A DNA stretch of 63,172 bases, filler included, from Stramenopiles sp. TOSAG23-6 (lineage: Eukaryota): NCBI GenBank assembly GCA_900128565.1. It is 37 parts of 37 records of this genome, joined end to end, with 100 filler letters (N's around TTAATTAATTAA, not from the genome) between each part and the next. Parts side by side here need not be neighbours in the genome. Positions count along the whole stretch, not along the records: positions 51,382 to 52,983 come from LT638813.1; 36 more parts are not named here. One strand, 5' to 3'. A model generated the notes under the pieces. The model had not been told where the DNA came from, did no database searches, and worked only from the letters and a program-made list of their open reading frames with translations. Shown here one piece after another: positions 12,036 to 63,172 of the stretch. Position numbers and translations under genes: made by a program. Every line of letters begins with the position of its first letter. Position 1 is the stretch's first letter.

Positions 12036-13651
12036 CTTTCAGAAAATTATTTATTGCATTTCTAAAATTGATATTTTCTCTGTGAATTTAACAAACAATG
12101 CATTCGGAGATTGAAGTAAATTTTTATTTATTTATACCACAAAAAAAAGTCTTTATTCGTTTATTCAGTAAAAATGTGTTGCAATGATTATTGCATGTGT
12201 AGTATGAGTAATTCAAAATGTTTTTTTTGTAATTTTGTTTTGTAAATTGTTTTTTTATAAATTGTTTTTAAATTACTTCACTTCCAGGGAAAGCACTGCA
12301 CAATCAAGCATATAAAATGCCTCGCTACTAACTCCACTACCTCCAGGATTTTCGCACAAATATGGAGCTCTACCAATGGATTGAATACTAAATAGTTCAT
12401 CAGAGAGAAAATCTCTACAGACTCTATTTACAAAACCTTCAAAAGTTTCATCACTTGGACATTTTTCAGATAATAAATTTTCTTCTGGTCCAGAGTACTA
12501 CTTTATATTTTACCACATAGCTATAGCCTATATATAGCTATAGTAGATTTGTTAAGATTGATTTATTATTTAAAAATTTTACTATAAAACTATAGAGAAT
12601 TATCCAAAATCTGTTAATTGTATTTTAAGTTCCTTTACTCGGCGTGCTAATTTTCGGATTGTCGGTAATGTTTGCGCTTTTTCTAACATCCACAATCTGT
12701 TTTTTGCTGCAAGTTCTTCTCTTCTTCTTTCAAATTGTTTCTTTTGAGTTTTTATCCATTCTTCAGACTGATTTTCACTATTTTGTTTTTCATTCTCCTT
12801 CCCACTCAATGTCTCTTTTATTGTCAGCGTACTACCTTTCCTATTTGTCATTTTCTGCGTTGTATGTAATTTTGCAATTTCTTCTTCCACAAATCTAATT
12901 TCTTTTTTATCTGATTCTGCTTGCAGTTTCCTATGTTGCCATTGTCTCAATGAGTTTCCTATGACACGTAATTCAACACGAATTTCTTCAGCATAAGAAT
13001 CATCAATTTTATGTATTGTGAAAAAGTACAAAATCAGAAAAAATCACAAAAAAAATCGTTAGGTACGAAATTTCGTATGAAAAAAAAACTAGATTTGAAA
13101 TTGAAAAAAAATAAAACATACATGCACCCTAAAGGATGACTTTGATGTCTTCTTATCTAATTGTTTAGATTGTTCTATTTTTTGAGGATCTACAATTTTG
13201 GTCTTGGTTCCTTGTGGTGTAATGCTATAATATTCGTTGCTATTTTCTAAAGTAAATTTACTTTCGGCATTAGCATTTCGTCGTAGTTTCGTACGATGCT
13301 TAAAAAGATCATGTATTGTGAAAAAACAAATTAGTTAAGAAAAACTCGTTAGGTACGAAATTTCGTATGAAAAAAAAATTAAATTAGAAATTCATACGAA
13401 ACGTACATATCTAGTGGGACTTAATTGTTGTTTTTGAAATAGATTGTTTTGTTGATTTTGTATAATGCTTTGAACTGGGCTATTATCATTCGATTTCATA
13501 TAAGATTGTCCAGTCGATTGATCTAGTACAAGCTCTACAGGACATCGCGGTGGGCGTCTCTCTCTTCTCTCTGGAAATTTCAAATACCAAGGTGAAGACA
13601 AAATTTCCTCTTGTGTCTGATTTGTTCCAGCATCTAATTTGTTTTTAGATG
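12036..13651. repeat. Duplicate of contig 10319-11935
   Basis: Essentially identical sequence and ORFs. Confidence 0.95.
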
Positions 13652-15369: not shown

Positions 15370-15469
15370 NNNNNNNNNNNNNNNNNNNNNNNNNNNNNNN
15401 NNNNNNNNNNNNNTTAATTAATTAANNNNNNNNNNNNNNNNNNNNNNNNNNNNNNNNNNNNNNNNNNNN

Positions 15470-16988: not shown

Positions 16989-17229
16989 ACAGTTTGAAGA
17001 TGATTCTTGTTTGAATACGAAACATGAAAATAGTGTCCCAAAATCACCCATGGTAAGCGAACTACAAACGAAAGTTGATGTTGACNNNNNNNNNNNNNNN
17101 NNNNNNNNNNNNNNNNNNNNNNNNNNNNNTTAATTAATTAANNNNNNNNNNNNNNNNNNNNNNNNNNNNNNNNNNNNNNNNNNNNTTTTTTTTTTTTTTT
17201 TTGGATAGGGTTGTTCAATGATAACTTAC

Positions 17230-22164: not shown

Positions 22165-22329
22165 GTATGTTTTATTTTTTTTCAATTTCGATTTTTTTTC
22201 GTACGAAATTTTGTACCTAACGATTTTTNNNNNNNNNNNNNNNNNNNNNNNNNNNNNNNNNNNNNNNNNNNNTTAATTAATTAANNNNNNNNNNNNNNNN
22301 NNNNNNNNNNNNNNNNNNNNNNNNNNNNC

Positions 22330-23942
22330 AGGAAAATAAACCAAAAAACAATAATCATAAAAATTCACTATCTGTGAGTCAGCGAACAGTGCAGGGTATG
22401 AAACTACCAGCTTGTATGATAAAACAAATAGTATTACATGAGCCATGTAGGAATCCTCAATATTTACACACACTAATGGCGATAATACGTTTTTTTGTTG
22501 AAAGAGGAGGGGACCTCTGGAAGATTTTAAGAAAAAAAGGCCCAATAATGAAGAGTCAAAATATGTTGCAGTTAACTCAAGCATTAATTAATGGTTCTGA
22601 TGACGGTTATGGAGACTCTGATTTTGATGATGATGGTTCCGATGACGATGAAGAATTCGATACATATGAGGATTTACCGTCGCAAGATAAAGTTGCACTT
22701 GATACAAAAGGAATGCCTATATACCTACTGGGAGGAAGGAAAATTGATGGCTTCAAAGGAATTCTTTCATGTAGTATTGCGTTACTTTCTAATGTATCAG
22801 CGGGTCTGTCGCCAACTGATTTATGGCAATTATTAGAAAAGATGGAGGTTCCTTGTTTTGAAAAAGCGAAGCGCACTAACTTAATATGGTTACTACATTA
22901 CTTGGGTGTGATGCAAGTAGATGAATTATTATCATTAAGTCCACGATGTCGAGGAACAATTCTAAGTCGTGCAATATATGCAAATCTTCAGCAGCATAAA
23001 GATGGCGATGAGGTTAGTGATTCGGAGGATGAAGAAGACGATACATACCCATATGCATCAAAAATTCAACAAAAAGTTGTTTTACAATATTTACGGGCAT
23101 ATTTTACAAAACTTCCACTATGTCAACGGCGTGTGGAAGAACTACCAGCTCAATTAGAAAAGAGCTGCAAGTGGAATGCTTTAAAAGCCGCAGTTTCACA
23201 AGTGCCTATGTTCTTGTACATGTTTAAGGGTAATCCACACCTTCGTCACAAATTAAAGCAATATTGGAGACAATTAGCATGTAATATACTTAGCAAAGAT
23301 GATTACCTCCCATTACCCAGATCAAAAACACATTTTGATCCAGTACATGAGTATAATAGATCCGTACAAGATTGGTGTTCAATCACAACTCCTTCTTCAG
23401 TAGAGCTCACGCATGTTTTGATGCAAATTCTTACCTTTTTTAAAGAATTTTCTCGTTTCGAGACCCTAGTGCCGTCATTTCGCCATCCCGGTCTTACGAT
23501 GAGTACTCTCACTACAATTGAATTGCCAGACTTTACTCTTCCCAATAGAGAGGGCACCTTACATAATCATCCTCATTACTTTTACCATAGATGGATTTGG
23601 GTTCAGTTTCCATGGATGGCTCTAGGTCAACCTCGGATACTCCATAATTTAACAGCACAGGCAAGGCAGGCGGTTTTAGAAAGCCATGATCCTTTAGAAG
23701 CTTTAGAAAGTAATGATGTTTCGAGATCTGCAACAGGTTCGTTTTGGAATGTAAAAAAAGTTGATCCCGAAAAAGGTCCCAAAAATGAGGCGACTTTTCA
23801 TAGGATGAAGGCAAAAATTAATGGTAAATTACAGAAAAATAGCCCATCCCGAAATATTAATACAACTGAGCCTGAAATGATGACATTACAAATGGCACAG
23901 AAAAGATCTATACAATCATCTCATGGTTCTCTTAATCAAAAA
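22330..23942 (+). CDS. Large protein fragment resembling the NACHT-associated region of nephrocystin-3/NWD-type proteins
   Basis: Long intronless ORF; RRVEELPAQL...W..LK...LKQYWRQL. Confidence 0.45.
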
Positions 23943-27506: not shown

Positions 27507-28528
27507 ATGTAATCTAACATGTTTCTTTCTCTCCGAACCAGCTAAATCCACTACACGCAACATTCCCTGAAGGGATCCATCAGTAATATTTCTTAAAGTT
27601 ATTCTCAATATAGCATGAGATCGGGACGATTCAGGATTGTTACCAGTGGCAGCTGTAGCTCGTTCGGCGGAGCCTTTGCGCACAATACTAATTGCCTCAT
27701 CAACGCTATTTGCGGCAACTTCTGTGAGACCTATTACATTAATATGGCCATCTTGATCAGTTCTGAGAGTAAGTTGATTCCGAGAAGAAAGCAGATCTAA
27801 ATTAAGATCTCCTTGATTTTCAAAAAATGAAATAAGCATATGCACACCAGATGGCATCGCAGTATATATGTCTCGTATGGCTTGCTCCTGTATATAGGTG
27901 CACGTGTAAGTCTTCCCACTACCGGTCTGTCCGAATGATAGAATTGTACAAATACCACAATCTAAGCATCGGGAAATCAAAGGGGAGACTAAAACTTTAT
28001 ATATATTAGCATTATTAGCACTAGCTCCAAATGTGTGATCAAATATCTGTCGTTTAGCACTAAGTTTTCCAGTGAAAAGACCAAGTTTTTCTTCTTTTCC
28101 GTGAAGGTATGTTGCTGGATTACATGTATTTTGGAAAATATTTTACATTCAATATTTTTATTAGGTACAAAATTTCGTATGAAAAAAAAATTCGAATTTG
28201 AAAAAAAATAAAACTAACAGCACGTAATACAGTCAAAGTTTGAGTTTGAAACTACTTCTCCTAAATTTGATAATACGGGACGTTTACGAACACATACCAA
28301 AATATTATTTCTTGAGCCCTCATTTCCCTGGTGAGGTTGAGTAAGGCTGGTTACATTTTCTGCACGCCAACAGTCAACTTTTTTCACAAAGTCGAAAGTT
28401 TCCGGATCAGCCGCTTTAGTATCTCGCCTTACTTCCATTAAAGAGGACAAAGCTGAATCGTCAGGTACAGCCGATAAACCCCGCTGTGCTAATGCTGCCC
28501 GCATGCGCTTTTCTTGGATTGTATTCAT
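27507..28528 (-). CDS. Kinesin motor protein (kinesin-13-like), 3'-partial; intron 28124-28218
   Basis: VCVRKRP, FGQTGSGKTYT, NPESSRSHA, VDLAGSER. Confidence 0.92.
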
Positions 28529-30951: not shown

Positions 30952-32423
30952 GCGCATAAAAGGTCTTTTTGATTTAATGCAAAATCCTGAAACCTTAGTC
31001 ATGCCTACTATTGAACAGGTGTATGTACGTTTTCATCATGAATTTTAAAATTATTTTTTTTTTGGTACGAAATTTTGTACCTAACGATTTTTTTACTAAA
31101 AAAAATATTTTTTCACAGTATATGACGATCTTTGTTATGGAGATCGTATCTACCAGTGGCTTTGTTATGGATTTTTATGTTGCCCTGAAAATTTAGGTGA
31201 TAAATTAAAAAAAACATGCGTACCTCTTTTACCATTATTGAAATCAGTTTTAGAAGATGGTTTTATTCTTCCTGTATTTCGTGATAAGACTCTTATGATA
31301 CACAGTAGTTTGGACGAGATGTATGTTTCTTTCTTGTTTTATGTTTTTTTCTTGATGTTTTATGTTTTTTTTATGTGTTTTTATGTTTTTTTTATGTGTT
31401 TTTATGTTTTTTTTATGTGATTTTATGTTTTTTCTGTTTCGCTCTATTTTTTTCAATAGAAAATTTTGTACTTAACGATTTCTTTTTACATTTTTCACAA
31501 TACATGGTATTGTTGACTAAGAAATTAATGAATCATGACTTTCATAAAACTGCAGCCCATAAAATTATTGGTGAAGCTGAATTTGTAGCTGTAGAAACAA
31601 GTGCCACGTGTCATGCAGACCATCGAACGTACCTTCGAATTTCAATCGGATCACTTGTTAATTTAATTCGTGAATGTCCAGGTACTTTAGGCCCGAAGTT
31701 TCCATTGGTATTAGCAGCACTATCTGTTTGTCGTCAAGAACTTGATTGGTATTTTCGACATCTTGGAGCTGAACCAAAAAAACACACGGGTTGGTTTTCA
31801 AAAGAACCTAAACATGTACGTTTTTGTTAGGTACAGAATTTGGTACAATTTTTTTTTTTTTTTTTTTTTTGTATGATTTTTTTTTTTTTTTAAATTTGTA
31901 CCTAACAAATTTAATTTTTGTTTGAAATATTTTCATACAATATATGATCACGGAGACTGGAATGATCCTCAAATTTCTGAATTAATATTTCTGTCCATGG
32001 AACTTCAAGGTGAATGTCGCAAGGGATATCGCCTCATCGCTCAGTATCATATTAAATTTCTTGCTGGTGCTATGACGAATGACGTTAAAGAAGGCTCAAA
32101 AATTCTAAATTCACATCCAGTTTGTGTAAGTCTTTTCGAAAAGTTAGTTAGTAATTTAGAATCTCTTTCATCAATTGGTGACATCTCTGATCCCAAGATT
32201 GAAGGTAAAATACATAATACGTTACACGAAATCAGAACAACTTGGTTTCAAATAGAGGGTATCATTTCTGATAATTCATCTCGTTTTCATCAGTTGAAAG
32301 GCGATTCAAAAGAAGCTTTGTCCCAATTAATGCGTAAAATGACAAAAGTGTGCCGTCATTCTCGCTTTGTTGACTGTTTTGAAGATGAGATGGTCCGTCA
32401 CGTTTCATTATCAGAACTTTTAT
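30952..32423 (+). CDS. NCKAP1: NCKAP1/NAP1/Hem subunit of the WAVE/SCAR complex, internal exons; GT-AT introns 31025-31123, 31321-31505, 31816-31945
   Basis: QWLCYGFLCCP, LPVFRD, HADHRTYLR, PGTLGPK...ALS....E..WY.RH, D..ISELIF. Confidence 0.88.
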
Positions 32424-33634: not shown

Positions 33635-34372
33635 AAAAATAAAATATTTTTTTTTTAACAAAATTTTTTTTTATTTTGAATCAAAAAAATTAAAAATTAT
33701 TCTGGAAGAATTTCGTACATACCTGTCGCACTACAATCATCATCCGTTTCTATTTCTATACTATTACTACTATTGCTAGTAGGGTTAGGGTTATTACTAC
33801 TATTATTAATAGTCCAAGTAGGGTTAGGGTTATTATTAATAGTACTAGTAGGGTTAGGGTTAGGTGATACTTCATATGCCCCAATGGCACAAAACTGGCT
33901 TTGTATATTTTGAGGGTTTACATCTGTAGTTGAAATATCATTTGTCTTTGAATAATTTTCCGTACTTATTTGGTACGAATCTGAATTTTGTATTGTGTGT
34001 GAAATATTTGTACTTTCATATAAGGATAAATTTTGGATATTTTCTTTTTTTTCATTTGGAACAAACATGTTTTTTGAAAAGTCTTGAATTTGCCATTCTT
34101 GTTCATTTCGTTTATTTTCGATATTATTTGTTACCGTTGATAACTCATTTTTATCACAGTGAGCATATATGTATCATTAAAAAAAAAAAAAAAAATTAAA
34201 TTGGTTAGGTATGAAATTTTNNNNNNNNNNNNNNNNNNNNNNNNNNNNNNNNNNNNNNNNNNNNTTAATTAATTAANNNNNNNNNNNNNNNNNNNNNNNN
34301 NNNNNNNNNNNNNNNNNNNNTACGAAATTTTGTACCTAACAAATTTCGAATTTAATTTTTTTTACAATACAT

Positions 34373-35037
34373 GTCGTACGTTGGTTTGAGAGGCTCGGTA
34401 GTCCTCCTACTAAGAACTTTGAGGATGTAAGGAACAATATTAATGATAATATCAATGAAATACCTGAAGATTTGGATCCTATTTTTCGTTTGATTTTTCA
34501 AGAGCAAATGCCATATACGTTTTATTTTTTTTTCAATTTGGATTTTTTTTTTCATACGAAATTTTGTACCTAACGATTTTTTTTTGGAATATTTTTCCAA
34601 AATACATATGTGCAGAGTGTAGTAAATGCAATTGACGACTATTGTGAAAAAAATCCAAATGCGAAAAGAGTACGTTTTCATTTCAATTTCGAATTTATTG
34701 TTTTTCGTGCGAAATTTTGTACCTAATGATTTTAATTTTTGAAATATTTTTCATAACCAATGTCCCTCGAGCTTTAGGTTCTACAGATTTTATCGTTGGA
34801 AAAAAATTAGGTAATCGAAAGTTAGTCACTTTTGTCCAGTGGAAAGCACAGAGAGCTCGGGATGCATATGAAGAAGCAATCGATCATGGAGAAAGTAAGA
34901 CTGCCATTTATGATTGGTTTAAACGAGTTCAGGAAGATAAAATAGATTTTGATGCGGAAAAAATAATTCCTCGCATTTCTAACAGATTGACTAGAGTAAA
35001 TTTTGAAGAAGTTAGAGAGTTGAAAAACACAAAGTAG
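34373..35037 (+). CDS. C-terminal exons of a possible glutathione-S-transferase-like protein; introns 34515-34607 (AT-AT) and 34670-34761 (GT-AT)
   Basis: Open frame after splicing; RVPRALG...F.VG...G.R...FVQWKAQR..DAY. Confidence 0.45.
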
Positions 35038-44369: not shown

Positions 44370-45026
44370 GTACGTTTTTTTTATTATTATTTTTTTATAT
44401 AGTGTGTGTATAGTTTTCGTACGAAATTTTGTACCTAACCAAAAAAAAAAAAAAAAAAAAAAAAAAAANNNNNNNNNNNNNNNNNNNNNNNNNNNNNNNN
44501 NNNNNNNNNNNNTTAATTAATTAANNNNNNNNNNNNNNNNNNNNNNNNNNNNNNNNNNNNNNNNNNNNTCCTGTGGACTTCGGGTACAAGATATATTTTG
44601 GTACCCTACATTTTTGGCGCCAACGTCAACCCGAACCGGTCAAATAATTTTTGGAATCGAAATTCGAAAAAAAAAAAGTAACTGGTTTCCTTTTTTTTTT
44701 ACACGTGTGACTGCCGTGTGACTTGTCACTTACACAATATACAAGTGTAGCCTGTTAATTGTGTTGTTATTGACATACCTACTGTAGATACTACTACGAC
44801 CTCTCTTTTCTAGTGTATTGGTTACATAGATAACTCTACTACTGGTAAATATTAGGCCTATTCGTATATCAACTTGATCACGGCTTGTTCATAAGGCACT
44901 AGGGATAGCTATTGTTGGTCATATTATAAAAGGAACCGCTGTGGTTTTATTTGTTCATTAATATGTTTTGCGCTGATCTCTATACATATTAGAACGCCAA
45001 GCACTCACTATAGCTAGTTACCCATA

Positions 45027-46080
45027 ATGATGGCATATACAGTCGCTAGACGTGGGTTTTGCTCAGCACGAACTCTCTTGAAAGACAATCTTTGTTTGAC
45101 TTTTCCTGGTCAAGGGACTCAATACTATGGTATGGGCAAACAACTTTGTCATGATTTTCCTTTTGCGCGTTCTATTTTTGAACAAGCTGATGAAGCTCTT
45201 CAATATAACTTGTCTCGTCTAATGTTTTCAAGTCCCACTGACAATAACGACGACCAATCAACTTGTCTCTCTCAAACAGAGCATGCACAGCCTGCAATAT
45301 TAATACACTCCATCGCTACTCTTGCAATATTACGTGAAGAATGCGGATTAAATTTAACTTTTGATTCTGGGGTTGACAGTGCTGTCTCCGTAGTCCTTGG
45401 ACATTCTTTGGGGGAATATACTGCACTAGTTGCTTCTGGGTCGTTATCTCTAAGTGAAGGTGTACAGTTAGTACGATCAAGAGGTTTAGCGATGAGCAAT
45501 GCAGTTCCCAATGAAATAAAAACGTTAATGTCTGCTATGATGCCTACTACACGAAATGCTGTTTCTGAACTAATCCAGGAAGTTTCTAAAAACTTGGGCG
45601 AAGGACATGTTTGCAATATTGCTAATGTCAACTCAAGAAAGCAAGTTGTAATTAGTGGAACTAAAGCAGCTGTGGAGTTAATTGCCAAATTGGCCAAAGA
45701 AAGAAAAATATGTTTGTTTTCATCATTGAATTTCAAATTTGTTTTTTTTTTCATAGAAAATTTTGTACCTAACAAAAACAAATATTTTTGAAAATATTTT
45801 TTCACAATACATGTCGCAAAAGTATACCCTTAAAAGTGAGTTCAGCATTTCACTCCGATTTGATGGCTCCAGCAGTAGAAGAGTTGAAATTGGCCCTTTC
45901 AAATGTTTCTATTAAAACACCAACAATTCCAATTATATTTAATGTAGATGCGTTGGAACGTCCTCATAATGCAAAGATATCTATCGAGGGTAATGTAGAT
46001 AATATAGAGTATACTGATGATGTCGTTAAAAAATTATTACTCCGACAGATGGTTTCACCTGTTCTATGGCTAGATTCTAT
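45027..46080 (+). CDS. fabD: Malonyl-CoA:ACP transacylase (mitochondrial-type); GT-AT intron 45712-45812
   Basis: FPGQGTQ, AQPAI, GHSLGEY, QVVISG, I|CRKSIPLKVSSAFHS, SPVLW. Confidence 0.95.
45712..45812 (+). other. GT-AT intron in fabD
   Basis: T|GTTTGT...GTACCTAAC...CACAATACAT|GT; no AG between branch point and junction. Confidence 0.88.
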
Positions 46081-46272
46081 GTATGTTTTATTTTTTTTTT
46101 AAACAAAAAAATTCGATTTTTTTTTCATACGAAATTTTGTACCTAACAAATTTTAGTTTTTTTTTTTGAAATNNNNNNNNNNNNNNNNNNNNNNNNNNNN
46201 NNNNNNNNNNNNNNNNTTAATTAATTAANNNNNNNNNNNNNNNNNNNNNNNNNNNNNNNNNNNNNNNNNNNN

Positions 46273-47876
46273 TCCTGTGGACTTCGGGTACAAGATATAT
46301 TTTGGTACCCTACATTTTTGGCGCCAACGTCAACCCGAACCGGTCAAATAATTTTTGGAATCGAAATTCGAAAAAAAAAAAGTAACTGGTTTCCTTTTTT
46401 TTTTACACGTGTGACTGCCGTGTGACTTGTCACTTACACAATATACAAGTGTAGCCTGTTAATTGTGTTGTTATTGACATACCTACTGTAGATACTACTA
46501 CGACCTCTCTTTTCTAGTGTATTGGTTACATAGATAACTCTACTACTGGTAAATATTAGGCCTATTCGTATATCAACTTGATCACGGCTTGTTCATAAGG
46601 CACTAGGGATAGCTATTGTTGGTCATATTATAAAAGGAACCGCTGTGGTTTTATTTGTTCATTAATATGTTTTGCGCTGATCTCTATACATATTAGAACG
46701 CCAAGCACTCACTATAGCTAGTTACCCATAATGATGGCATATACAGTCGCTAGACGTGGGTTTTGCTCAGCACGAACTCTCTTGAAAGACAATCTTTGTT
46801 TGACTTTTCCTGGTCAAGGGACTCAATACTATGGTATGGGCAAACAACTTTGTCATGATTTTCCTTTTGCGCGTTCTATTTTTGAACAAGCTGATGAAGC
46901 TCTTCAATATAACTTGTCTCGTCTAATGTTTTCAAGTCCCACTGACAATAACGACGACCAATCAACTTGTCTCTCTCAAACAGAGCATGCACAGCCTGCA
47001 ATATTAATACACTCCATCGCTACTCTTGCAATATTACGTGAAGAATGCGGATTAAATTTAACTTTTGATTCTGGGGTTGACAGTGCTGTCTCCGTAGTCC
47101 TTGGACATTCTTTGGGGGAATATACTGCACTAGTTGCTTCTGGGTCGTTATCTCTAAGTGAAGGTGTACAGTTAGTACGATCAAGAGGTTTAGCGATGAG
47201 CAATGCAGTTCCCAATGAAATAAAAACGTTAATGTCTGCTATGATGCCTACTACACGAAATGCTGTTTCTGAACTAATCCAGGAAGTTTCTAAAAACTTG
47301 GGCGAAGGACATGTTTGCAATATTGCTAATGTCAACTCAAGAAAGCAAGTTGTAATTAGTGGAACTAAAGCAGCTGTGGAGTTAATTGCCAAATTGGCCA
47401 AAGAAAGAAAAATATGTTTGTTTTCATCATTGAATTTCAAATTTGTTTTTTTTTTCATAGAAAATTTTGTACCTAACAAAAACAAATATTTTTGAAAATA
47501 TTTTTTCACAATACATGTCGCAAAAGTATACCCTTAAAAGTGAGTTCAGCATTTCACTCCGATTTGATGGCTCCAGCAGTAGAAGAGTTGAAATTGGCCC
47601 TTTCAAATGTTTCTATTAAAACACCAACAATTCCAATTATATTTAATGTAGATGCGTTGGAACGTCCTCATAATGCAAAGATATCTATCGAGGGTAATGT
47701 AGATAATATAGAGTATACTGATGATGTCGTTAAAAAATTATTACTCCGACAGATGGTTTCACCTGTTCTATGGCTAGATTCTATGTATGTTTTATTTTTT
47801 TTTTAAACAAAAAAATTCGATTTTTTTTTCATACGAAATTTTGTACCTAACAAATTTTAGTTTTTTTTTTTGAAAT
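46273..47876. repeat. Exact duplicate of contig 44569-46172
   Basis: Identical sequence and ORFs. Confidence 0.95.
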
Positions 47877-48078: not shown

Positions 48079-48123
48079 CGATTTTTTTTTATCAAAAAAA
48101 AAAAATAAAAAAATAAAACATAC

Positions 48124-49679: not shown

Positions 49680-51281
49680 TTCATTATTCTCATGAGATAC
49701 TTTACTGTCACAATCTTTAGTTTTTGTGCTTTTAGTGTTTTCTAATTGTGTGCTCAACACATCATTAATGATACTGAAGTGAGTATTTTTATCTTGTACT
49801 GTGCTATTCATTCCATCTGCTTGATTCATCAAAAATTCTGCAAGTGTCATCAATTTCACTTGATTAGCAACATTAATAGATGATGATAGCTCATCTTTAA
49901 TACCTTTAAGATATATATTTGAAGGGGGATTTGCTTTTGGTGGGGCTAAACACCAAAGTATAGCTGGAATATCTCCCATCTTTACTCGTTCAACAGTTGT
50001 GGCAGTACTATTGATATCGGTACCGCGATTTGATGTTTCAAATAATGACAATATTTGAAGTATTTCCTCAATGTGTTGATAGTTTTGTGTCACTTCTTCA
50101 TCACAAAGTTCTGCATTCATATTACTAATACTTGCTGACTCATCAAAAGTACTGTCTCCTTCTTCACCGCTATTGACCGGTGAATTTGAAGGAGTGTTTT
50201 TATCTTCGATACTTTGAACATTTTGAACATTTTGAACATTTTTTAAAACAGAAAAAACGCTATCAACTGTCGTTTTAGATAGGGTCTTCTTTTTGAACAA
50301 AGCTGCCAGTGCTACATGATTAATTTTCCGAGATCTCAATTTCCTTTCATCAATAATTTCTCCAGCAAGAAATGGATTTCTAATTTTAACTACACTTTTA
50401 TTACCTAACCAGTCTTGGAAGTCTACTTTTTCAGGGAATGAGCCATTAAACTCATCTTTAGCAGCTTGCCGGAGGTATGGTAAGTCTGAAGCTTCTCTAT
50501 ACATCTGTGCTTTTTCTTTATCATTAAGGGTGTCCCAATATTCCTGCATCAATTCCACGTTTCCCGAAATCGATTCAACTTCACTCTTCATAAAATTTTC
50601 TCGAGCTTTGTTTTCCGTTGTATACCATTTTTTGAATGCTGTCCACCGAGTTTCTGTGGACGTTCCATGTGGATCAATGTAACCTTCTGGGCGAGGGATA
50701 TCTTTTATACCATATCCTACTTCGTCATAGTCATCTTCTGTAAGCAAAGTAAGACCTGCTTCTTTTGCAAGCAGACATGTTTTAGTATCATAAGCCGCGG
50801 TAACCAATTCCTTCTTTTGTGCTTCAACAGTCATTGACTCCCATTCTATTGGCGTTGACTGGCGAATATTGCCAATTGGTTGAGGTGGTGGTAATGCAGG
50901 TCCAATCGGACCATTGTCAAAGAAAAATTCCTCTCTGCACTCTGAAGGTTCATTTAGCACTTCACCTGCACCAATATTTTCCGGTAATGGGAGGTGACAT
51001 ACCGATATTTTTAATGTAAGGCGTGATCGAGCTGATAAAGGCTTAGCTGGTGTTTGTAATAGCAAATTTCCGTTTTCTTCATCATTGCATATGTTTGGTA
51101 ATTTTAGTGGTTCCATGTGAAGTTTCTGTGTTTTACGAAGTTTGACCAGAGCTATATATTCATTTTGCTCCTCTAGAGATTCTTTTACTGCTTCTGCAAG
51201 CCTTTTATCGCTGGTTTTAGGTGGCATTGTTACACTAGCACCAGCACCTGTAGTAAATGTCGCCGACTTGGAAAACTCACG
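49680..51281 (-). CDS. Hypothetical protein, intronless fragment
   Basis: Over 500-codon ORF; no motif recognised. Confidence 0.7.
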
Positions 51282-51381: not shown

Positions 51382-51464
<83 letters not shown>

Positions 51465-52110
51465 CGAAATCGAACAATATGTTAGGGTTAGGGTTGTTAG
51501 GGTTTTCTGCATTATGAAAACAAACATGAGAATAATACAGGCTCTTGAGATACAACACCAATGTTTCGTCGTAATGCAACAGGACCACCAGGATATTCGC
51601 GAATATTACGACCCCCAACAAAAATATCGCCATGTAATTTTAGGAAAATATTTCAAAAAAAAAATTGATTTTTTTGTTAGGTACAAAATTTCGTACGAAA
51701 ACCATAAAAAAAAAAATTTCAAATTCAAATTTTGAAAACGTACATCTAAAGGGTCATATAATCGACTAATTAATGCAGTGACTGTCGATTTCCCACATCC
51801 ACTGCCACCGACTAATGCCAGATGATGCCCTGCCGGGATTTTTAATGACAAATTTGAAAGTACAGGTACAGACCTGCGCGTCGGATATGAAAAATGAATA
51901 TTTTTTAATTCGATCTCGCCAAGGTTAGGATTATTTGGATTATTTTGATTATTAGTTTTAACAACAATGTTTTTATATTCTTCTTCTATTTTTTTCTCTT
52001 GTTTTGAAAATATCTCAAAGTCCATTGGAATTTTCTTCATATCAACAGGAGAAGTCATTGAAGGTATTCTATCTAAAATTGTAAATAAACGTGAAGATGT
52101 TTTGTGAAAA

Positions 52111-52145
<35 letters not shown>

Positions 52146-52219
52146 GAAAAAAAAAAATTTGTTTGGGAAAAAATTTTTTTTTAAAAAAAAATTTTTTCCC
52201 AAACAAATTTTTTTTTTTC

Positions 52220-52254
<35 letters not shown>

Positions 52255-52268
52255 TTTTCACAAAACAT

Positions 52269-52839
52269 CTTCACGTTTATTTACAATTTTAGATAGAATA
52301 CCTTCAATGACTTCTCCTGTTGATATGAAGAAAATTCCAATGGACTTTGAGATATTTTCAAAACAAGAGAAAAAAATAGAAGAAGAATATAAAAACATTG
52401 TTGTTAAAACTAATAATCAAAATAATCCAAATAATCCTAACCTTGGCGAGATCGAATTAAAAAATATTCATTTTTCATATCCGACGCGCAGGTCTGTACC
52501 TGTACTTTCAAATTTGTCATTAAAAATCCCGGCAGGGCATCATCTGGCATTAGTCGGTGGCAGTGGATGTGGGAAATCGACAGTCACTGCATTAATTAGT
52601 CGATTATATGACCCTTTAGATGTACGTTTTCAAAATTTGAATTTGAAATTTTTTTTTTTATGGTTTTCGTACGAAATTTTGTACCTAACAAAAAAATCAA
52701 TTTTTTTTTTGAAATATTTTCCTAAAATTACATGGCGATATTTTTGTTGGGGGTCGTAATATTCGCGAATATCCTGGTGGTCCTGTTGCATTACGACGAA
52801 ACATTGGTGTTGTATCTCAAGAGCCTGTATTATTCTCAT
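52269..52839 (+). CDS. ABCB-type ABC transporter NBD fragment; GT-AT intron 52622-52733 (mirrored copy on minus strand)
   Basis: [40 protein letters not shown]. Confidence 0.93.
52666..52689 (+). repeat. Dispersed conserved intron core TTCGTACGAAATTTTGTACCTAAC (representative copy; dozens in the window, oriented with the host gene)
   Basis: Visible directly, and as recurring peptides VRNFVPN / SYEILYLT in the ORF track. Confidence 0.97.
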
Positions 52840-52900
52840 GTTTGTTTTCATAATGCAGAAAACCCTAACAACCCTAACCCTAACATATTGTTCGATTTCG

Positions 52901-52983
<83 letters not shown>

Positions 52984-53083: not shown

Positions 53084-54683
53084 GAGTTAAAGATAAATTC
53101 AAGCTCTTTGGTAGACAAATCGTTTTACTAAACGCGCAAGAAAAAGCGACAAATGAATCTGAAGGCGCGATGCGTACATTGGAATCTATGTACAAAGATA
53201 AATCAAATGAGTTGGCAAGTTTTACAGCTGAAGCTTCCATACGGAAAATTGAAATTATCTCGAAAGTCAAAGATAAATTCAAGCTCTTTGGTAGAAAAAT
53301 AATTGTTCGNNNNNNNNNNNCCGCCGCTAGAAAATTTGAACTCATTATGAGAGTCAAAGATAAATTTAAACTCTTTGGTCGACAGATTATTTTACAAAAT
53401 GCAAAGGAGAAAACACTCAAAAATGCAGAAAGTGTACTTAGATATGTACAATCTTTTTATGATAAAAAATCAACTGAGTTGGTCAATATATTTGCGGAAT
53501 CTGCTTCTCGAAAATTTGAACTAATTATGAGAGTCAAAGATAAATTCAAACTGTTTGGTCGACAGATTATTTTACACAATGCAAAGGAGAAAACAGTCGT
53601 TGATGCAGAAGGATCTTTGAAACATTTGGAATCCACGTACAACGGTAAATCATTTGAGTTAACTGGTGTATCAGCTGAATGTGCAATTCGAAAGATTCAA
53701 GATGTGACAACAAACAAGATGACTGAAAAGAATGCGTTGGTGAGCGAAACAGCAGCGAGAAAGATTGAAATTGTAGCGAAAGTCAAACATAAATTCAAGA
53801 TCCTTGGTAAACAAATCATTCAACGTAATACGCAAGGCAATGCGGTGAATGCTGCTGAAGCATCTTGGCGAAATACAAATGCAATACTCCAATACAAATC
53901 AATTGAATTGGTGAACTTTACAGCAGAGGTGTCTGCTCGGAAGGAGGAAGCAGTGCAATCATTAAAATTGAAACAGTATCATGCACAAAAATATATTGCT
54001 TTGCAAATATTACATGTAACTTCAATAAACTTTGATGGTATATGGGTATCATTAGACTTGATACGCAAAATGTACAATACTTACATTGCAAAACTTATCT
54101 ATTTACGAAGGGTGAAGGGTAAATTTCAGTTCGTTGGTAGAAAAATAATTGTTCGAAATGGACAACAAAAAGCTGCTAATGATGTGGAGGCTGCATTACG
54201 TAGTTCCGGGAAAATGCTTCATAATAAATCTATTGAATTGTCTGGTATATCATCAGAGAATGGAATAAGACAAATTGAATACTTGACAATCAACAAGCTT
54301 ATTGAAAAGGATGCGTTGGTGAGTGAAGCGGCATCTAGACGATGGGAACTCATTATGAGAGTCAAAGATAAATTTAAACTTTTTGGTAGACAAATAGTTT
54401 TACTCAATGCGCAAGATAAAGCGGCGAATGATGCCGATGCAGCAATGCGTAATTTGATGGCTCTTCATCGAAATAAACAATATGAAGTTGCCGCTCGAAC
54501 AGTTGAAGTAGTTGCTAGAAAGATCGAAGTGGTAGCTTTAAAAAAGATGATTGAAATGAATGCTGTACTAACAGAATCTGCTACTCGCAAATTTGAACTA
54601 ATTATGAGAGTCAAAGACAAATTCAAACTCTTTGGCAGAAAAATAATTGTTCGTAATGCAGCTCTTAACGCAATTAATGAAGG
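53084..54683 (+). CDS. Repetitive alpha-helical protein fragment with recurring RKFELIMRVKDKFKLFGRQI motif
   Basis: Single open frame; about eight copies of the motif. Confidence 0.8.
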
Positions 54684-55025
54684 NNNNNNNNNNNNNNNNN
54701 NNNNNNNNNNNNNNNNNNNNNNNNNNNTTAATTAATTAANNNNNNNNNNNNNNNNNNNNNNNNNNNNNNNNNNNNNNNNNNNNGTATTTTGGAAAAATAT
54801 TTCAAAAAAAAAAATATCGTTAGGAACAAAATTCCGTACGAAAAAAAAAATTATTTACTAAAAGAAAAAAAAAAAAAAAAACATTGAATTTTTAATTTTT
54901 TTTTTTTTTTTAATTTTTTTTTTTGATTTTTTATAATAATAATGATGATAATAATATAAATCCTTCCGAGTAAATCTGAAGCTGTAAAGAATAAATACAG
55001 AAATCATATTTTATTAATTTATTTC

Positions 55026-56293
55026 TTAAAGCATATATTCATCGCGCAAAGCATTAGCTAAATAATCAACCTTCAATTGCTCTTCGATATCTTCAAAATA
55101 AACAAATTCCATCTTTTGTATTTTGGAAAAATATTGCAAAAGAAAAAAATTTTAATTTGTTAGGTACAAAATTTCGTATGAAAAATAAATTCAATTTCAA
55201 AATTAAAAAAAAAAATAAAACATACATCATTCTCTAAAAATTGAATACGTTGCTGCAATGCGCTAAGCGTAGCATCACATGTATTGTGAAAACATATTTA
55301 AAAAAAATTGTTAGGTACGAAATTTCGTATGAAAAAAAAATAAATTAGAAATTCATATCAAACGTACATTCTCTATCGATATATTCTTTATATCGTTTTG
55401 GACTACATCCCTTATCTCTCCTTGGAATATAGTATAGGAAAATATTTTTAAATGTTTTTTGTTAGGTTCAAAATGTACAAAAAACAAATGAGGTAAGACA
55501 TTTTGCATTTTGAAAAAGTACATTCCCCATAGACATTCTTGTATCAAGATAATGTATTTTAGAAAAATATTTCAAAAAAAAAATTGAAAAAAATCGTTAG
55601 GTACAAAATTTCGTACGAAAAATAATTTCGATTTTTTTTTTTCGGTAAAAAAAAAATAAAACATACATACCTTCCCTAGGACTTACCCGTCGCTTGGCGT
55701 CATGAGTGAGAAATGCTCGAGCCACTTTTTCAACTTTGGATATATTGTAAAAAAATATTGTTCAAAATTTTTATTTTTTTTGTTACGATATACATTTTTC
55801 ATAGTAAAAAAAAATTAGAAATTTCATTTTTCATAGTAAAAAAAAATTAGAAATTTAATTTCATTTTTCATAGTAAAAAAAAATAGAAATTTAATTTTGA
55901 AAACTGTACAATAGCCTGGAGGTAAAGGTGGTACCGTTGTTCTCAAATGTGGTGGTATCAGCGATTTTTTGTCTGTTTCCCAAGGATGTGGTAAACCTAG
56001 TAACTCATAATTTGTGAAGAAATATTTGAAAAAAAATGTTTTTTGTTAGGTATACAATTTTGTAAAAAAATGAATTTTTTTTTTTTTTTTTCGTAAAAAA
56101 AAAACCTACATATATTGTACAACCAATTCCCCAAATATCAGCTTTTCTATAATCATACACCGGTGATGTTTCAGAAGCACTGGCTACTTCTGGGCTCATA
56201 TTAGCTGGATTACCTTCCCGCGTACTAGGCAATAATGTTTTACAGCTGCATCCGAAGTCTATCAGTCTAATCTCACCAACACGGTGAAGCATT
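55026..56293 (-). CDS. Ser/Thr protein kinase, C-terminal part in seven exons
   Basis: IRLIDFG, NMSPE, DIWGIGCTIY|ELLG.PHPW, LTHDAKRRVS; introns include 56007-56109 (GT-AT); 30-nt exon at 55522-55551. Confidence 0.9.
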
Positions 56294-56481
56294 ATATATT
56301 ATGAAAAAATATTTCAAAATTTTTCTAAAAAAAAAATCTTTTTAGTTTAGGTACAAAATTTTTTTACCAAAAAAAAAAAATNNNNNNNNNNNNNNNNNNN
56401 NNNNNNNNNNNNNNNNNNNNNNNNNTTAATTAATTAANNNNNNNNNNNNNNNNNNNNNNNNNNNNNNNNNNNNNNNNNNNN

Positions 56482-56878
56482 TTTAAAATTTTTTTTTCGT
56501 AGGTAATTTTGTACCTAACATTTTTTTTTTTTTAATATTTTTTTTTAGACATTCAATTGACAGGAATTGAAATCCCTGGAGCCATGCATGGAATTATGTT
56601 ACCAGGTAACCTGAGATCTTCAAAATCGTTACCCGGTCAACTGTATGAAAATGCAACACAAGAGAGATTTCGTGATCAGATGATTGATCGCATTAACACT
56701 GCTAGTACTTTATTACGACAACAAGCTTTTATTGATCGATCATACTACTCAAAAACAACACCTGATTTAGTTCGTTTACAATTTGAATTAATTTGGTTAG
56801 AAATTAGTATGTTTTTTTTTTCAACTATTTTCCAAAATTTTTTTTTTTTTTTTTTCATACGAAATTTTCATAGTAAAA

Positions 56879-56914
<36 letters not shown>

Positions 56915-57338
56915 TTTTTTAAAATTTTTTTCACAAATTATTTTTACTATGAAAATTTCGTATGAAAAAAAAAAAAAAAAAATTTTGGAAAATAGTTGAA
57001 AAAAAAAACATACTAATTTCTAACCAAATTAATTCAAATTGTAAACGAACTAAATCAGGTGTTGTTTTTGAGTAGTATGATCGATCAATAAAAGCTTGTT
57101 GTCGTAATAAAGTACTAGCAGTGTTAATGCGATCAATCATCTGATCACGAAATCTCTCTTGTGTTGCATTTTCATACAGTTGACCGGGTAACGATTTTGA
57201 AGATCTCAGGTTACCTGGTAACATAATTCCATGCATGGCTCCAGGGATTTCAATTCCTGTCAATTGAATGTCTAAAAAAAAATATTAAAAAAAAAAAAAT
57301 GTTAGGTACAAAATTACCTACGAAAAAAAAATTTTAAA
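56482..57338. repeat. Inverted duplication (fold-back chimera, centre ~56910)
   Basis: Same exon on both strands. Confidence 0.88.
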
Positions 57339-57978
57339 TTTTTAAATTACATAAATTAGGGTTAGGGTTAGTATAACATACATACTATCATATATTGCAA
57401 GTAACGTTGATCTTGGTAAATTATCACCCATATATTGTGGAGATATATTTTATACTTGATTGTTTTATTAAGTATACAATTTGGTACAAAAAAAAAAAAA
57501 AAAAATTAAAAAAATTAAAAAAAAAAAAAAAAGTCTAAAAATTTAAAAAAAAAAAACATACAATGGCTGTGGTGGAGGATCACAATTTTCATTTTGTTTG
57601 ATCCAATCCATAACTGTCATTTTTTTCTTTACAAGTGGATTATGCATTGATGTATTCAACAAAATTGTTGTATTGTGAAAAAATATTTTTTTTTTTAATT
57701 TTATTAGACACAAAATTTTATTTTTTCTGTAAAAAAAAAAAAAAAAAAAAAAATTTAAATTTTTAAATTTTGTTAGGTACAAAATTTCGTACGAAAAAAA
57801 AAAAAAAAACTTCAAAACATACTTGAATAGGATAAAAAGTAAACAGTATCAGGATGTGAAAAACATCCTGGATTATCTAAATAGTATTGTTCTGAAAAAG
57901 CCACAATTAGACGTTCTATTTTTTGTGCTTCTTTAGGTAACATAAAACCGCCAAATGATGAAACGAAATATTTCAATA
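57012..57978 (-). CDS. Sec7-domain ARF-GEF fragment; intron 57668-57822 (GT-AA) plus two GT-AT introns
   Basis: FMLPKEAQKIERL, DTVYFLSYS|TILLNTSMHNP.VK.KMT, GDNLPR..L..IYDSI. Confidence 0.92.
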
Positions 57979-58026
57979 TTTTTTTGTTAGGTACAAAATT
58001 TTTTTAAAATTTTTTTTCATAGTAAC

Positions 58027-58079
<53 letters not shown>

Positions 58080-58179: not shown

Positions 58180-59777
58180 ATCTGTTACAATAGCAGCACG
58201 GTATTCATATTTTAGATCGTGAATACGATGTCTTCCTGCAGTCCAAGATATATCTGTAATATCCAGTGTGTACTCACTGTTTTTAATATAGTTATTATAT
58301 CGTTTTGCTGTGGAAGGAATGTTTTTATGGTGTGTAGTAGAAATTGGGATAATACAAACTTGATCTTTGTACTTTGGATTTCTAGACTTCTCTTTGGAGT
58401 TCCTTGAGACCTGATATTGTTGGAGAACAACATGCGCATTTGTTCCACCAAATCCGAAGGCACTTGTTCCGACGACTGTTCGACCTTTAGTTGGTCCATC
58501 ATTTAGAGTCTCTCCCTTTGTGATTATATGGACACCCATCTCATCAAACGGTATATGCTCATTCGGGGTATTCATGTTGAGGCTTGGAGGTATCCAATTA
58601 TGATATAAAACAAGCACCGTCTTCAATATATTGGCAATTCCTGCCGCAGCTTCTAAATGTCCTATATTCGTTTTGACACTACCTACTCGCAATGGTCCTT
58701 CTTTATAGACCGATCGTCCGCAATTTTGGACAAATACACGTCCTAAAGCAGTCAACTCAATTGGATCACCAAGTTTAGTACCAGTACCGTGTGCTTCAAT
58801 ATACGCCACATCCGCCGGCGATATTTTTGCATCCTTATATGCTTTATCCAATACATTTTCCTGTGACGCGGGATTTGGAGCAGTTAGTCCATTGCTGCGA
58901 CCATCTTGATTGACTGCACTTCCTCGTATTACAGCATACACTATATCATCATCTCGAGATGCATTCTCAACTCTCTTGATAACTACCATTCCACAGCCTT
59001 CGCCACGGGCGTATCCATTCGCTAGATTATCACCAAATTTCACTTTATTTTCTGGCGAAAGCATTCCTGCGGCTCGAAATGCAGAATATGTGCGGGGATT
59101 AAAAAGAAGATTTACTCCTCCTACTAAAGCGGAGTTAATATCCCCACTCCTTAATGCTTGTATGGCATTATGCAAAGCTACTAATGAAGAAGAGCAAGCT
59201 GTATTTATACTGACACTTGGACCCTGAAGGTTAAATGTGTAAGATATACGATTTGCAACAATACTTAAGTCAGTTCCAGTTCCTACAAAAGGGCTGTCAG
59301 TATCTAAGCTAGTGATATTATGATAATCACACGCAGAAACACCCATGAAAACTNNNNNNNNNNNNNNNNNNNNNNNNNNNNNNNNNNNNNNNNNNNNNNN
59401 NNNNNNNNNNNNNNNNNNNNNNNNNNNNNNNNNNNNNNNNNNNNNNNNNNNNNCAATACGTTGTTGTGGGTCCATTTGACATGCTTCTGCATGAGAAATT
59501 CCGAAAGCGGCTGCATCAAAACTCGATATAGTTTTTTCTGACAAAAAAGCCCCGCCTCCTCTAAGGTTAACACGATAAGATGGAGGGGTGTTGGACATTG
59601 CACTTACACCTTTTCTTAGCATTCTCCAAAATGCCTCAGGTGAATCCACTGATCCTGGGAAACGGCAGGACATACCCGTCACCGCAATCAAAGATTTATT
59701 AAAATGTGTATGTCTGGGTAGTTTAATGACTTTTAATCTATTCGGTTTATCAACAGTATTGGAATTGTCTTTCTCGG
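58180..59777 (-). CDS. Type I polyketide synthase ketosynthase domain plus KS-AT linker
   Basis: MSCRFPG, MDPQQR, NTACSSSL, EAHGTGTKLGDPIE, KTNIGHLEAAAG, SAFGFGGTNAH. Confidence 0.95.
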
Positions 59778-61840: not shown

Positions 61841-63118
61841 ATTTCTAACTCTTTGCGCTTTCTTTCTTTTTTAATTCGTTCGTCCTCCTGAAGTTTCATT
61901 TGATATTTTTGCAATTTAATCATACGTCTATGTATTATGAAAAAATATTATTTTTAGTAAAAATTTGTTAGGTACAAAATTTGGTACAAAAAAATATTCG
62001 AAATTCAATTTTGAAAACGTACATGCTTTGACTGCGCTCGTTCTAATGCCTCTTGTTTAGCTAGTTTCTGTGCAGCCCACTCTTGCTTTTCCTTTCGCCG
62101 TTTGGATCTCTCTTCTAATTCCTTCATTCGTTTTTCTTTTTCACGTCTCATTCTTTCAAATTGTGCTTTAGTTTCCTCTCTTTCTTGTAATATTTCATCT
62201 CGTTTTTTCTTTTGGGCTAATTCGCGTTGAGCTTTCGTCACTCTTATTGCTTTACGCCATTTTTCTTTCTCAGCAGCTTTATCCTCTGCCTCTTTATATC
62301 GCTTTATTTCGGCTGCTTTTTCTTCTTCCCTTCGTCGCTTTTCGACTCTTTTTTTTGCCTTTTCTAATCTTTTATCTCTTATTCTTCTCTCTTCTATTAT
62401 CTTTAATTTCTTTTCGTATTTGCTTAGTTCTTCAGCAGCTTTTCTTTTCAATTCCTTAGCTTTTCTTTCTATTTCACGTTCTCTTGCATCAGCTATATTA
62501 TCAATCTTTTCCTGAACTGAAGTCTTCCAGGCTTCATTTTTCATTTTAACATCATCAAGATATTCTTCTGTTTCAAGTCTGTGTGAAGTTGTTGGTCGAA
62601 GAGCAGGGTCTTGGTAAACAGCTTTGGGTTGTCTACGACTCATCTTCCAGCTTCGACGTTTTTTCCTTTGTTGACGCGTTTTAGAATTTCGTTTTAATAA
62701 ATTTGTATCATCTGGCGTTTCAGGTCTTTCATATAAACTATGTCTTAATTCTTTGAGTTCTCGTATGTCTTCTTGCATCTTTTCCTCTTGTGCAATCCGT
62801 TCTTTTTCAAACTTTTTCTCTAGTTTTTCTTTTTCTATTTTTTTGAACATATCCATTTCTTTTTTTACATCTGAGCTTTTCATATCTTTGCTCATTTTTA
62901 CACCGGATGCCAAAGCTTTCATCCGTGCTTCCGTTTGAGCTCTAATAATTTCTTGGGTCACAATTTCTTCAGCCTTTTTAGCAATGTTTTCATCTGCAAT
63001 TTCAGTCACAGTTAAAGAAATGACTCTTTCCCAAGTCTCTTCAGATGCAAAATCAGCTAATGATTCTTCAACAATTTCTTGAACAACTTCAGTGAGAATT
63101 GGCTTCCCATAGTCTGTC
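61841..63118 (-). CDS. Charged coiled-coil (K/E/R-rich) protein; GT-AT intron 61930-62022
   Basis: Long K/E/R-rich ORF; exons in phase. Confidence 0.7.
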
Positions 63119-63172
63119 ATGTATTTTGGAAAAATATTTCAAAAAAAAAAACTAAAATTTGTTAGGTACAAA

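Follow-up and report, generated by a model that had tools for sequence, protein, structure and literature searches.

Nearly all eukaryotic introns obey the GT-AG rule. The few lineages that break it at scale, such as Fritillaria, Amoebophrya and some euglenozoans, serve as the chief natural experiments on the re-tuning of the spliceosome and on introns made by transposons. Non-canonical introns of the larvacean tunicate Fritillaria, derived from miniature inverted-repeat transposable elements (MITEs), were reportedly described by Henriet et al. in 2019; non-canonical introns of diplonemids are said to have been reported by Gawryluk et al. in 2016, and non-canonical introners of the dinoflagellate Amoebophrya by Farhat et al. 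in 2021. In this study, a stretch of 63,172 bases from the assembly GCA_900128565.1 of Stramenopiles sp. TOSAG23-6 (hereafter the window) was analysed, in which introns sharing a 24-nt core recur in unrelated genes; in this uncultured marine eukaryote they make up a uniform GT-AT family that probably stems from a mobile element. Intron-poor eukaryotes have near-invariant branch sites of 7-8 nt, namely TACTAAC in yeast and an ACTAAC-containing 3' motif in Trichomonas and Giardia, and the core described here resembles them in a near-invariant sequence of that length ending in CTAAC or TAAC. Those organisms, however, keep a 3' AG and their introns are not one repeat family, and CTAAC is preceded here by AC and not by TA.

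In the available portions of the sources cited here and below, Fritillaria introns are described with a YAY triplet both before the 5' splice site and as the last three intron bases (PMC13326754, PMC11282704), and with inverted terminal repeats and target-site duplications, a MITE origin being relayed as a suggestion (PMC11282704). A 3' AT is the commonest end in F. borealis and F. pellucida, at 44% and 34% (PMC13326754). The introns of the window resemble these in that a YAT triplet, which fits the YAY pattern, stands before the 5' splice site in 21 of the 34 unique 5' ends and closes the intron in 36 of 47 unique 3' modules; the T-rich tract is kept, the host is marine and planktonic, and the short inverted ends and direct repeats that are taken there as signs of a transposon may have their counterpart here. 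They differ in their 5' GT, found in 33 of the 34, whereas F. borealis has mostly AG/AC and AG/AT introns in many classes (PMC13326754). Furthermore, one family with a constant internal block dominates here, a block of which no counterpart was met in the available Fritillaria descriptions, supplements aside, and the host is probably not an animal, as judged by one gene, for an H+-pyrophosphatase.

Introners of Micromonas, Aureococcus and dinoflagellates likewise place similar introns in unrelated genes of aquatic hosts (PMC9860276, PMC11282704), and the element brings one or both splice signals while the other site, or the restoration of the frame, comes from the target-site duplication (PMC9860276). 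Classical introners are GT-AG and have duplications of 3-9 bp (PMC9860276), whereas here the 3' end is AT and the putative duplication is at most 2 bp; moreover, nearly all introns seen here belong to one family, whose mobility we infer. The introners of Amoebophrya are also invasive, with inverted ends, short direct repeats and non-GT-AG borders in a marine protist, but their 3-5 nt target-site duplications are highly variable and their ends unfixed (PMC11282704), in contrast to the fixed GT...AT borders and the constant branch-like block of the window. Diplonemids and euglenids share marine protist hosts, fragmentary single-cell assemblies, dense non-GT-AG introns and a suggested MITE origin with the present case. 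In hemistasiids, however, the intron ends are G/C-rich, unconserved and extensively paired, and YTRAY is rare there, at 2-16% of introns (PMC12621601), whereas the ends here are A/T-rich and conserved and the branch-like heptamer is near universal. A literature search that did not extend to Henriet 2019, Gawryluk 2016 and supplements yielded, among the matches listed, no description of the motif (as TACCTAAC, UACCUAAC or ACCUAAC) or of GT-AT introns as a class.

The family is a very clean case of a broken rule. The 5' GT, a branch heptamer of yeast strength and the T tract are all kept, and only the last intron base differs (YAT for YAG); 3' splice-site recognition is therefore isolated as the variable, and a directly testable prediction follows for U2, U2AF and SF1 of the host; in Fritillaria, U2AF is reported to be altered by loss, duplication or divergence. 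In practical terms, standard gene finders would mis-model almost every gene of such genomes, and a profile of the family could help to mend the gene annotation of marine metagenomes and single-cell assemblies.

Intron architecture and splicing at GT...AT

An exact copy of the 24-mer, TTCGTACGAAATTTTGTACCTAAC, is found at 52666-52689 (+) within an intron of the family. The common layout runs from exon (Y)AT^GTAYGTTTT (the caret marks the splice border) through a T-rich stretch, (C/G)AATTTCRAATTT, a T run and the core TTCRTACGAAATTTYGTACCTAAC to an R with a T-rich spacer and finally AATATTTTTYCAMAATAYAT^G of the next exon, over an intron length of 89-139 nt (about 90-140). A whole-intron profile searched with nhmmer gave 74 matches, 67 of them unique, on at least 30 contigs with differing Pfam content. 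By its sequence, the whole intron and not the core alone is thus one repeat family with transposon-like hallmarks, a feature absent from an earlier, purely sequence-based reading of this DNA (the original prediction).

Both borders are conserved. Among the 34 unique 5' ends, 33 begin with GT (GTATGT 14, GTACGT 10) and one with AT, and in 28 the two exon bases before the border are AT. At the position aligned by the model, AT closes 39 of the 47 unique 3' modules (CAT 22, TAT 14, AAT 3) and AG closes one, and the first exon base is G in 32 of 46, so that the exon junction consensus reads AT^G instead of the usual AG^G. The last A of the core lies 30-48 nt (median 38) from the last intron base in 21 curated introns. 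For a few members the acceptor may be AG: in 7234-7372, ATATAT^ and CAG^ nine bases further on are both in frame, and for an intron around 57301 only a TTTAG^ cut is in frame. With the ...AT^ acceptor, 18 of the 21 curated introns were frame-compatible automatically and three more by hand, where one in three is expected by chance. Neither open frames nor fuzzy motif matching served to place acceptors, since T-rich introns are free of stop codons in some frames, and a census of adjacent pairs of open reading frames (ORFs) gave noise. In ordinary introns the first and last bases interact, G with G; if the same held here, a G-U contact would become A-U in the single intron that begins with A (34515-34607).

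Splicing was observed in RNA. Contigs of four runs were aligned to positions 54784-56381, where two RNA-library contigs of different studies bridge introns with no mismatches: X7 record 23 links 55551 with 55667 and 55739 with 55910, while X6 record 22 links 55739 with 55910 and 56005 with 56109; the exon-joined sequence is an open kinase reading frame. For the last of these introns the aligner placed the gap at 56006-56108, and a shift by one base yields GT...AT. Because of short repeats at the junctions, all three introns have alternative readings, among which GT...AT is the sole one common to all, while AT...AC is possible for just the first (55552-55666). Family copies are cut from RNA precisely at GT...AT. 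The core is exact in one of the three RNA-verified introns and diverged in another, where TACCTAAC is kept; in the third (55740-55909, minus strand), three tandem units of about 30 nt (TTTACTATGAAAAATGAAATT...TCTAATTTTTTT) replace the core and only ...TATCGTAAC is left as a branch-like site. Protein homology gives a further border: in a tblastn alignment with the kinesin homologue P0149, residues 4-108 fall on 28528..28217 and residues 108-316 on 28124..27507, so that the protein runs on without a break. In the polyA RNA libraries, too, depth over the intron bins is very high, at about 5,000-20,000 in X5 (54784-56381); this depth could come from unspliced RNA, excised introns or DNA carry-over, which contigs do not distinguish.

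The original prediction is borne out in part by these data. It had placed the 24-mer in an intron, 25-55 nt upstream of the acceptor, and had proposed that recognition of a 3' AG was lost; the exact match, the measured distances, and the 39 AT ends against one AG together with the RNA junctions all agree with it. It had also described the rest of the intron as variable poly-T, and here it fails, since GTAYGTTTT, (C/G)AATTTCRAATTT and AATATTTTTYCAMAATAYAT are conserved modules too.

The 24-nt core and the predicted branch site

Duplicate and chimeric contigs in the assembly mean that copy counts require de-duplication, which leaves about 55 kb of unique DNA. With up to three mismatches, TTCRTACGAAATTTYGTACCTAAC has 55 matches in the window against a mean of 0.00 in 100 shuffles; eight of the 55 lie in repeated DNA, and 47 unique core copies remain. 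The heptamer ACCTAAC occurs 76 times where 4.1 are expected, an enrichment of about 19-fold. Its 68 unique sites comprise 41 inside the 24-mer (at most three mismatches) and 27 inside more diverged or truncated cores, and the 3' module follows 22 of these 27. Conversely, 33 of 49 donor-like GTAYGTT sites have ACCTAAC within 260 nt downstream. The earlier claim that almost every intron holds the core is therefore right in that the motif is intronic and far above the shuffled level, and too strong in that 27 of the 68 heptamers sit in diverged or truncated cores and at least one intron-like stretch is coreless. Tandem double cores are seen at 2480/2575, 2765/2826, 32880/32926 and 48932/48854.

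The core follows the strand of the genes. Relative to the flanking ORF it lies on the same strand in 53 cases and on the opposite strand in 5, with 10 unclear; four of the five opposite cores adjoin frame-compatible sense introns, and the fifth is an antisense core within a sense intron. Equal frequency in antisense or intergenic DNA, by which the original prediction proposed to judge itself, was thus not found, in a window where intergenic DNA is scarce.

Conservation within the core is uneven. In 57 unique copies, recovered with a core-containing profile or pattern, positions 17-23 (TACCTAA) are kept in 54-57, and position 23, the predicted branch adenosine, in all 57; AAATTT at positions 9-14 holds in 52-57. 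Conservation drops to 41, 44 and 38 copies at positions 3, 7 and 8; position 4 is split between G (33) and A (22), and position 15 between T (46) and C (11). In an alignment of 25 full-length copies, the right half (TTTYGTACCTAAC) is conserved as strongly as the initial GT, and the left half drifts: column identity is 90-100% in the right half and 40-90% in the left half and in the (C/G)AATTTCRAATTT module. Median pairwise identity is 83% within the core and 65% outside it. The long fixed branch element of the original prediction is accordingly too strong a description, since the left half, at positions 3, 4, 7 and 8, is variable; the near-invariance of TACCTAA does indicate recognition beyond a minimal branch sequence.

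ACCTAAC is likely the branch site, with its second-last base as the branch A. CTAAC matches the general YTRAY branch consensus and can pair with the canonical GUAG box of U2. As CTAAC suits the canonical U2 without alteration, a changed U2, while possible, is not needed, and TACCTAAC, which the original prediction called atypical, is so only when set against yeast TACTAAC. In the proposed mechanism, CUAAC would pair with U2 in the ordinary manner, and the extra constant bases UACC and AAAUUU would be read by another branch-site factor or by a non-canonical U2. A U2 carrying GUAGGUA would pair perfectly, and a changed reader of the SF1 type would explain the pattern equally well. A search of the window returned no Rfam family, small nuclear RNAs included, at gathering or E<=1 thresholds.

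By class, the introns look like U2-type introns with another 3' end. A GT start, in 33 of 34, goes with an extended 5' site compatible with U1 and U6, and the predicted branch, CTAAC at 30-48 nt from the end with T-rich spacers, fits YTRAY in 21 of 21; the 3' AG is what they lack, in the 3' modules as in the three RNA junctions. The U12-type 5' site RTATCC at +1 to +6 was found in 0 of 34 5' ends. U12-type introns would further carry TCCTTAAC near the 3' end and no pyrimidine tract, whereas TACCTAAC at 30-48 nt and T tracts are found here.

The sequence GTACGAAATTTYGTAC in the core is a near-perfect palindrome. Of the cells in 46 copies (23 distinct rows), 81.9% pair, but 0 pairs show a compensatory change, and 126 of 500 shuffles reach the same covariation score; substitutions in the left arm simply disrupt the pairing. 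A selected hairpin in the core was rejected on these grounds. Likewise, a helix of the 5' splice site GUAYG with YGUAC of the core was rejected, as the variants GTTTGT, GTAGGT and GTTAGT occur without a matching change in the core. Folds of whole introns are not unusual (z from -0.04 to -1.8), one subfamily excepted (z -4.6). The palindrome is more likely a relic of the repeat structure of the element than a selected RNA helix.

Origin of the family and competing explanations

The reading that we favour, with moderate confidence, is that the 24-nt block is the best-kept module of a single spliceosome-type intron family of introner or MITE-like origin, whose AT at the 3' end is a target-site repeat. 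An intron-generating mobile element would have proliferated to give the family, and would have carried with it a GT 5' site, a branch site and a T tract. The AT before the 5' site and the AT at the 3' end would be the target-site duplication, and removal of the element with one copy of AT would restore the reading frame. On this proposal the 3' splice site is AT and not AG because it would be the duplicate of the target site. The same logic is described, in the portions available, for Fritillaria, where an exonic TAC gives a 3' AC (PMC11282704), and target-site duplications work in a like manner for introners in general (PMC9860276).

Several observations are consistent with such an origin. 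Copies in unrelated genes are up to 84% identical outside the core and share diagnostic stretches. In a seawater DNA run, the summed contig depth is about 28,000-58,000 in intron bins against about 3-4 in neighbouring exon bins, a rough figure to which other organisms may contribute. The ends read ...AT^GTAT......ATAC-AT^, in which GTAT and ATAC are inverted, as a 2-bp target duplication would give. In one subfamily, moreover, the 5' end GTACGTTT(C/G)(G/A)TATGAA is a 16-nt inverted repeat of the core (11594-11689, 13311-13406 and 55279-55367, all on the minus strand), and its fold at 11597-11692 on that strand reaches -18.9 kcal/mol. The nearest relative of the copy at 13311-13406 is the one at 55279-55367, with 84% identity outside the core and 100% within. 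This arrangement hints that the core and the 5' end of the subfamily are the two arms of an older inverted-repeat element.

Other points weigh against the mobile-element reading or narrow it. The RNA support consists of three introns on one contig, from polyA metatranscriptomes and not from a culture. The inverted termini are only 4-6 nt long (ATGTAT/ATACAT) and overlap the splice signals; the duplicated AT is only 2 nt, the third base matching across the two sides in 9 of 21 introns, not above chance, and the exon AT could be a requirement of splicing instead. Neither an autonomous element nor an empty site nor a presence/absence polymorphism was seen in the short genic contigs, on which no mobility-aimed search was made. 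The window is almost wholly genic and intergenic or antisense copies are hardly countable in it, and the conservation figures are biased upward and partly circular through the way in which copies were found. As to diverged introns, the remaining GTAYGTT sites include the core variants TACTTAAC, TACCTAAT and TACTAAAC, and one intron-like stretch, with its donor at 48123 on the minus strand, holds no core at all. Finally, the branch A is placed by sequence and distance, and canonical U2 pairing leaves the invariance of UACC upstream of UAAC unexplained.

That invariance is the strength of another account, the one given by the original prediction, in which the spliceosome itself was re-tuned: UACCUAAC would be a new branch consensus met by a matching change in U2 or U12 (such as GUAGGUA), possibly with extended pairing, and would offset the loss of AG. 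It can coexist with a mobile-element origin, and we consider it unlikely. The fixation of four bases upstream of TAAC, the constancy of AAATTT and the enrichment of ACCTAAC would all follow from it, and a U2 box with one additional G, on the U2 sequence as generally known, would make seven contiguous pairs around a bulged A; yet CUAAC fits the canonical box already, the left half of the 24-mer varies without compensation, and the conservation estimates favour copies that keep the core. Precedents in the available portions of the literature fall on both sides, with U1 of Entamoeba co-evolved with an odd 5' site (bioRxiv 10.1101/2022.06.08.495308) and the branch-recognition sequence of Fritillaria U2 strictly conserved despite far more aberrant introns (PMC13326754). 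Equally doubtful is the fuller scenario of a protist that swapped nearly its whole intron set, some ten thousand copies, for an introner-derived GT...AT family with the eight-base branch consensus UACCUAAC read by a co-evolved U2 (e.g. GUAGGUA for the GUAGUA that is otherwise near-universal); if true, it would be the first case of co-evolution between branch site and U2, coupled to an abandoned 3' AG. The core might, on the other hand, have no function and simply be the sole non-repetitive stretch between fast-slipping T runs in a young family. All intron modules are shared and not the core alone, the T runs vary chiefly in length, and the depth suggests very many copies. The account is nonetheless improbable, given the lower conservation of the (C/G)AATTTCRAATTT module and the left half than of the right half, the drop in median identity outside the core, the retention of ACCTAAC at the same distance from the 3' end in diverged copies, and a strand bias that is near complete.

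Two further alternatives would change the class of the introns. Nonconventional introns of the euglenid and diplonemid type, whose removal is guided by pairing of the two ends in place of ordinary splice-site recognition and which short direct repeats flank, would account for the AT repeated at both junctions; 6 bp can form between the terminal ATACAT and exon AT plus GTAT, the fold of 55552-55666 (minus strand) pairs both ends, and single-cell genomes of marine diplonemids are predicted, in the available part of the source, to be rich in non-GT-AG introns (PMC12621601). Borders with GTAYGT, a branch-like site and a T tract are strongly conserved here and lacking there by definition, non-AT exon ends occur without a compensating change at the 3' end, and whole-intron folds are ordinary, all of which makes this highly improbable. 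Least credible of all is a U12-type AT-AC intron whose borders have slid by two bases; U12, an option left by the original prediction, is not upheld. AT...AC can formally be drawn wherever the exon ends in AT (28 of 34), and TACCTAAC somewhat resembles TCCTTAAC; it is, however, impossible for two of the three RNA-verified introns and for the six of 34 with a non-AT exon end. The 5' site is GTAYGT and not RTATCCTT, the T tract is long, and the motif stands too far from the 3' end for the short spacing of U12 introns as commonly given.

Annotated features, assembly and host

The annotated introns, their modules and the telomere-like repeats are collected in Table 1.

Table 1. Introns, intron modules and telomere-like repeats by position (carets, splice borders)
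Feature	Position	Strand	Basis or remark
Intron holding the 24-mer, 112 nt, ...GAT^GTACGTTTT ... ATTACAT^GGC..., read GT..AT	52622..52733	+	Family model and reading frame
Downstream frame of the above intron			Set manually through the ABC-transporter reading D^G-DIFVGG; the upstream ORF matches Pfam ABC_tran
5' splice-site module GTACGTTTT, exon AT before it	52622..52630	+	
24-nt core TTCGTACGAAATTTTGTACCTAAC	52666..52689	+	
ACCTAAC heptamer, predicted branch adenosine 52688	52683..52689	+	45 nt from intron end
3' module, T-rich tract and ...AAATTACAT, ends AT	52711..52733	+	
Mirror copy of the 52622-52733 intron, other arm of contig 31	51632..51743	-	Identical flanks, paired matches, mirrored ORFs
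RNA-verified intron, exact core, 115 nt, tat^GTATGT...ATACAT^tat	55552..55666	-	X7 record 23
RNA-verified intron, 170 nt, att^GTACAG...ATATAT^cc	55740..55909	-	X6 record 22 and X7 record 23
RNA-verified intron, diverged core with TACCTAAC, 103 nt, atat^GTAGGT...AATTAT^gag	56007..56109	-	X6 record 22
Intron of the kinesin gene, gct^GTTAGT...ATACAT^gta	28124..28218	-	Homologue alignment; frame-compatible
Intron of the Nckap1-like gene	31816..31945	+	Pfam Nckap1 profile positions 307-388 and 394-540 on flanking ORFs
Sole family member starting with A and not G, cat^ATACGT...ATACAT^atg	34515..34607	+	
Subfamily with 5' end (GTACGTTTCGTATGAA) as inverted repeat of the core	13311..13406	-	Identical copy 11594-11689(-), contig 7
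Telomere-like CCCTAA repeats	52846-52892 (mirror 51473-51489)		
Telomere-like CCCTAA repeats	~9255-9275		
Telomere-like CCCTAA repeats	~57340-57360	-	
Telomere-like CCCTAA repeats	33800-33865	-	
Telomere-like CCCTAA repeats	L001 ~2270-2335	-	

In the Nckap1-like gene, an antisense core directly follows the 5' splice site of the intron and a sense core stands at the normal place. The window itself is made up of 37 short contigs (about 1.6 kb each) in order of length, with N44-TTAATTAATTAA-N44 linkers between them and a G+C content of 22-37%. Three pairs of contigs are 100% identical, namely 3 and 4 (3444-6781), 7 and 8 (10319-13652), and 27 and 28 (44569-47876). Contigs 31 (51382-52983) and 34 (56482-58079) are inverted self-duplications, and contig 31 accordingly carries mirrored ORFs at 51609-52280 (minus strand) and 52085-52756 (plus strand). 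Inverted self-duplications are chimeras of the type produced by whole-genome amplification.

The eukaryotic genes recognised in the window include DENN, MutL_C, ketosynthase, acyltransferase, H+-pyrophosphatase, kinesin, Nckap1, mitochondrial carrier, EF-hand and ABC transporter genes. The contig of the H+-pyrophosphatase bears the same type of intron, with a core at 44416. The best EukProt matches of this protein are at 65% and 57% identity, the best named one is the stramenopile Incisomonas marina at 47% identity, and the nearest named Atlas cluster is mainly diatom; a search of the Atlas with the Nckap1 piece gave a score below 0.9. H+-pyrophosphatase is, to our knowledge, absent from animals. 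On the basis of this one gene, the host, a marine eukaryote, is probably a protist rather than a tunicate. Furthermore, contig 33 is present in seawater metagenome and polyA metatranscriptome runs. A scan of metagenomes for the 24-mer met a single locus, the independent contig L001, with one intron of the same family; in prokaryote genomes a 17-mer gave 42 scattered single matches, about the chance level by a rough estimate made without a control.

Genes for a ketosynthase with a C-terminal extension domain and for an acyltransferase, of the type I polyketide synthase or fatty acid synthase kind, were found at 58180-59352 (minus strand) and 45018-45788 (plus strand), and the acyltransferase contig bears introns of the family. 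Among hits of at most 2000 residues, the best matches of the ketosynthase are bacterial-type polyketide synthases at about 50% identity. At 1e-5, Pfam gave no match to four long unbroken ORFs of 377-538 codons, at 22329-23942(+), 49680-51281(-), 53323-54681(+) and 62008-63138(-). No family intron lies on three of their four contigs, and intron density is very uneven among contigs.

Telomere-like CCCTAA repeats stand within introns or directly past genes. The string AACCCTAACATAYTGTT is common to the window and to L001, in which the inverted form TTAGGG comes after it, and may represent a second small repeat element.

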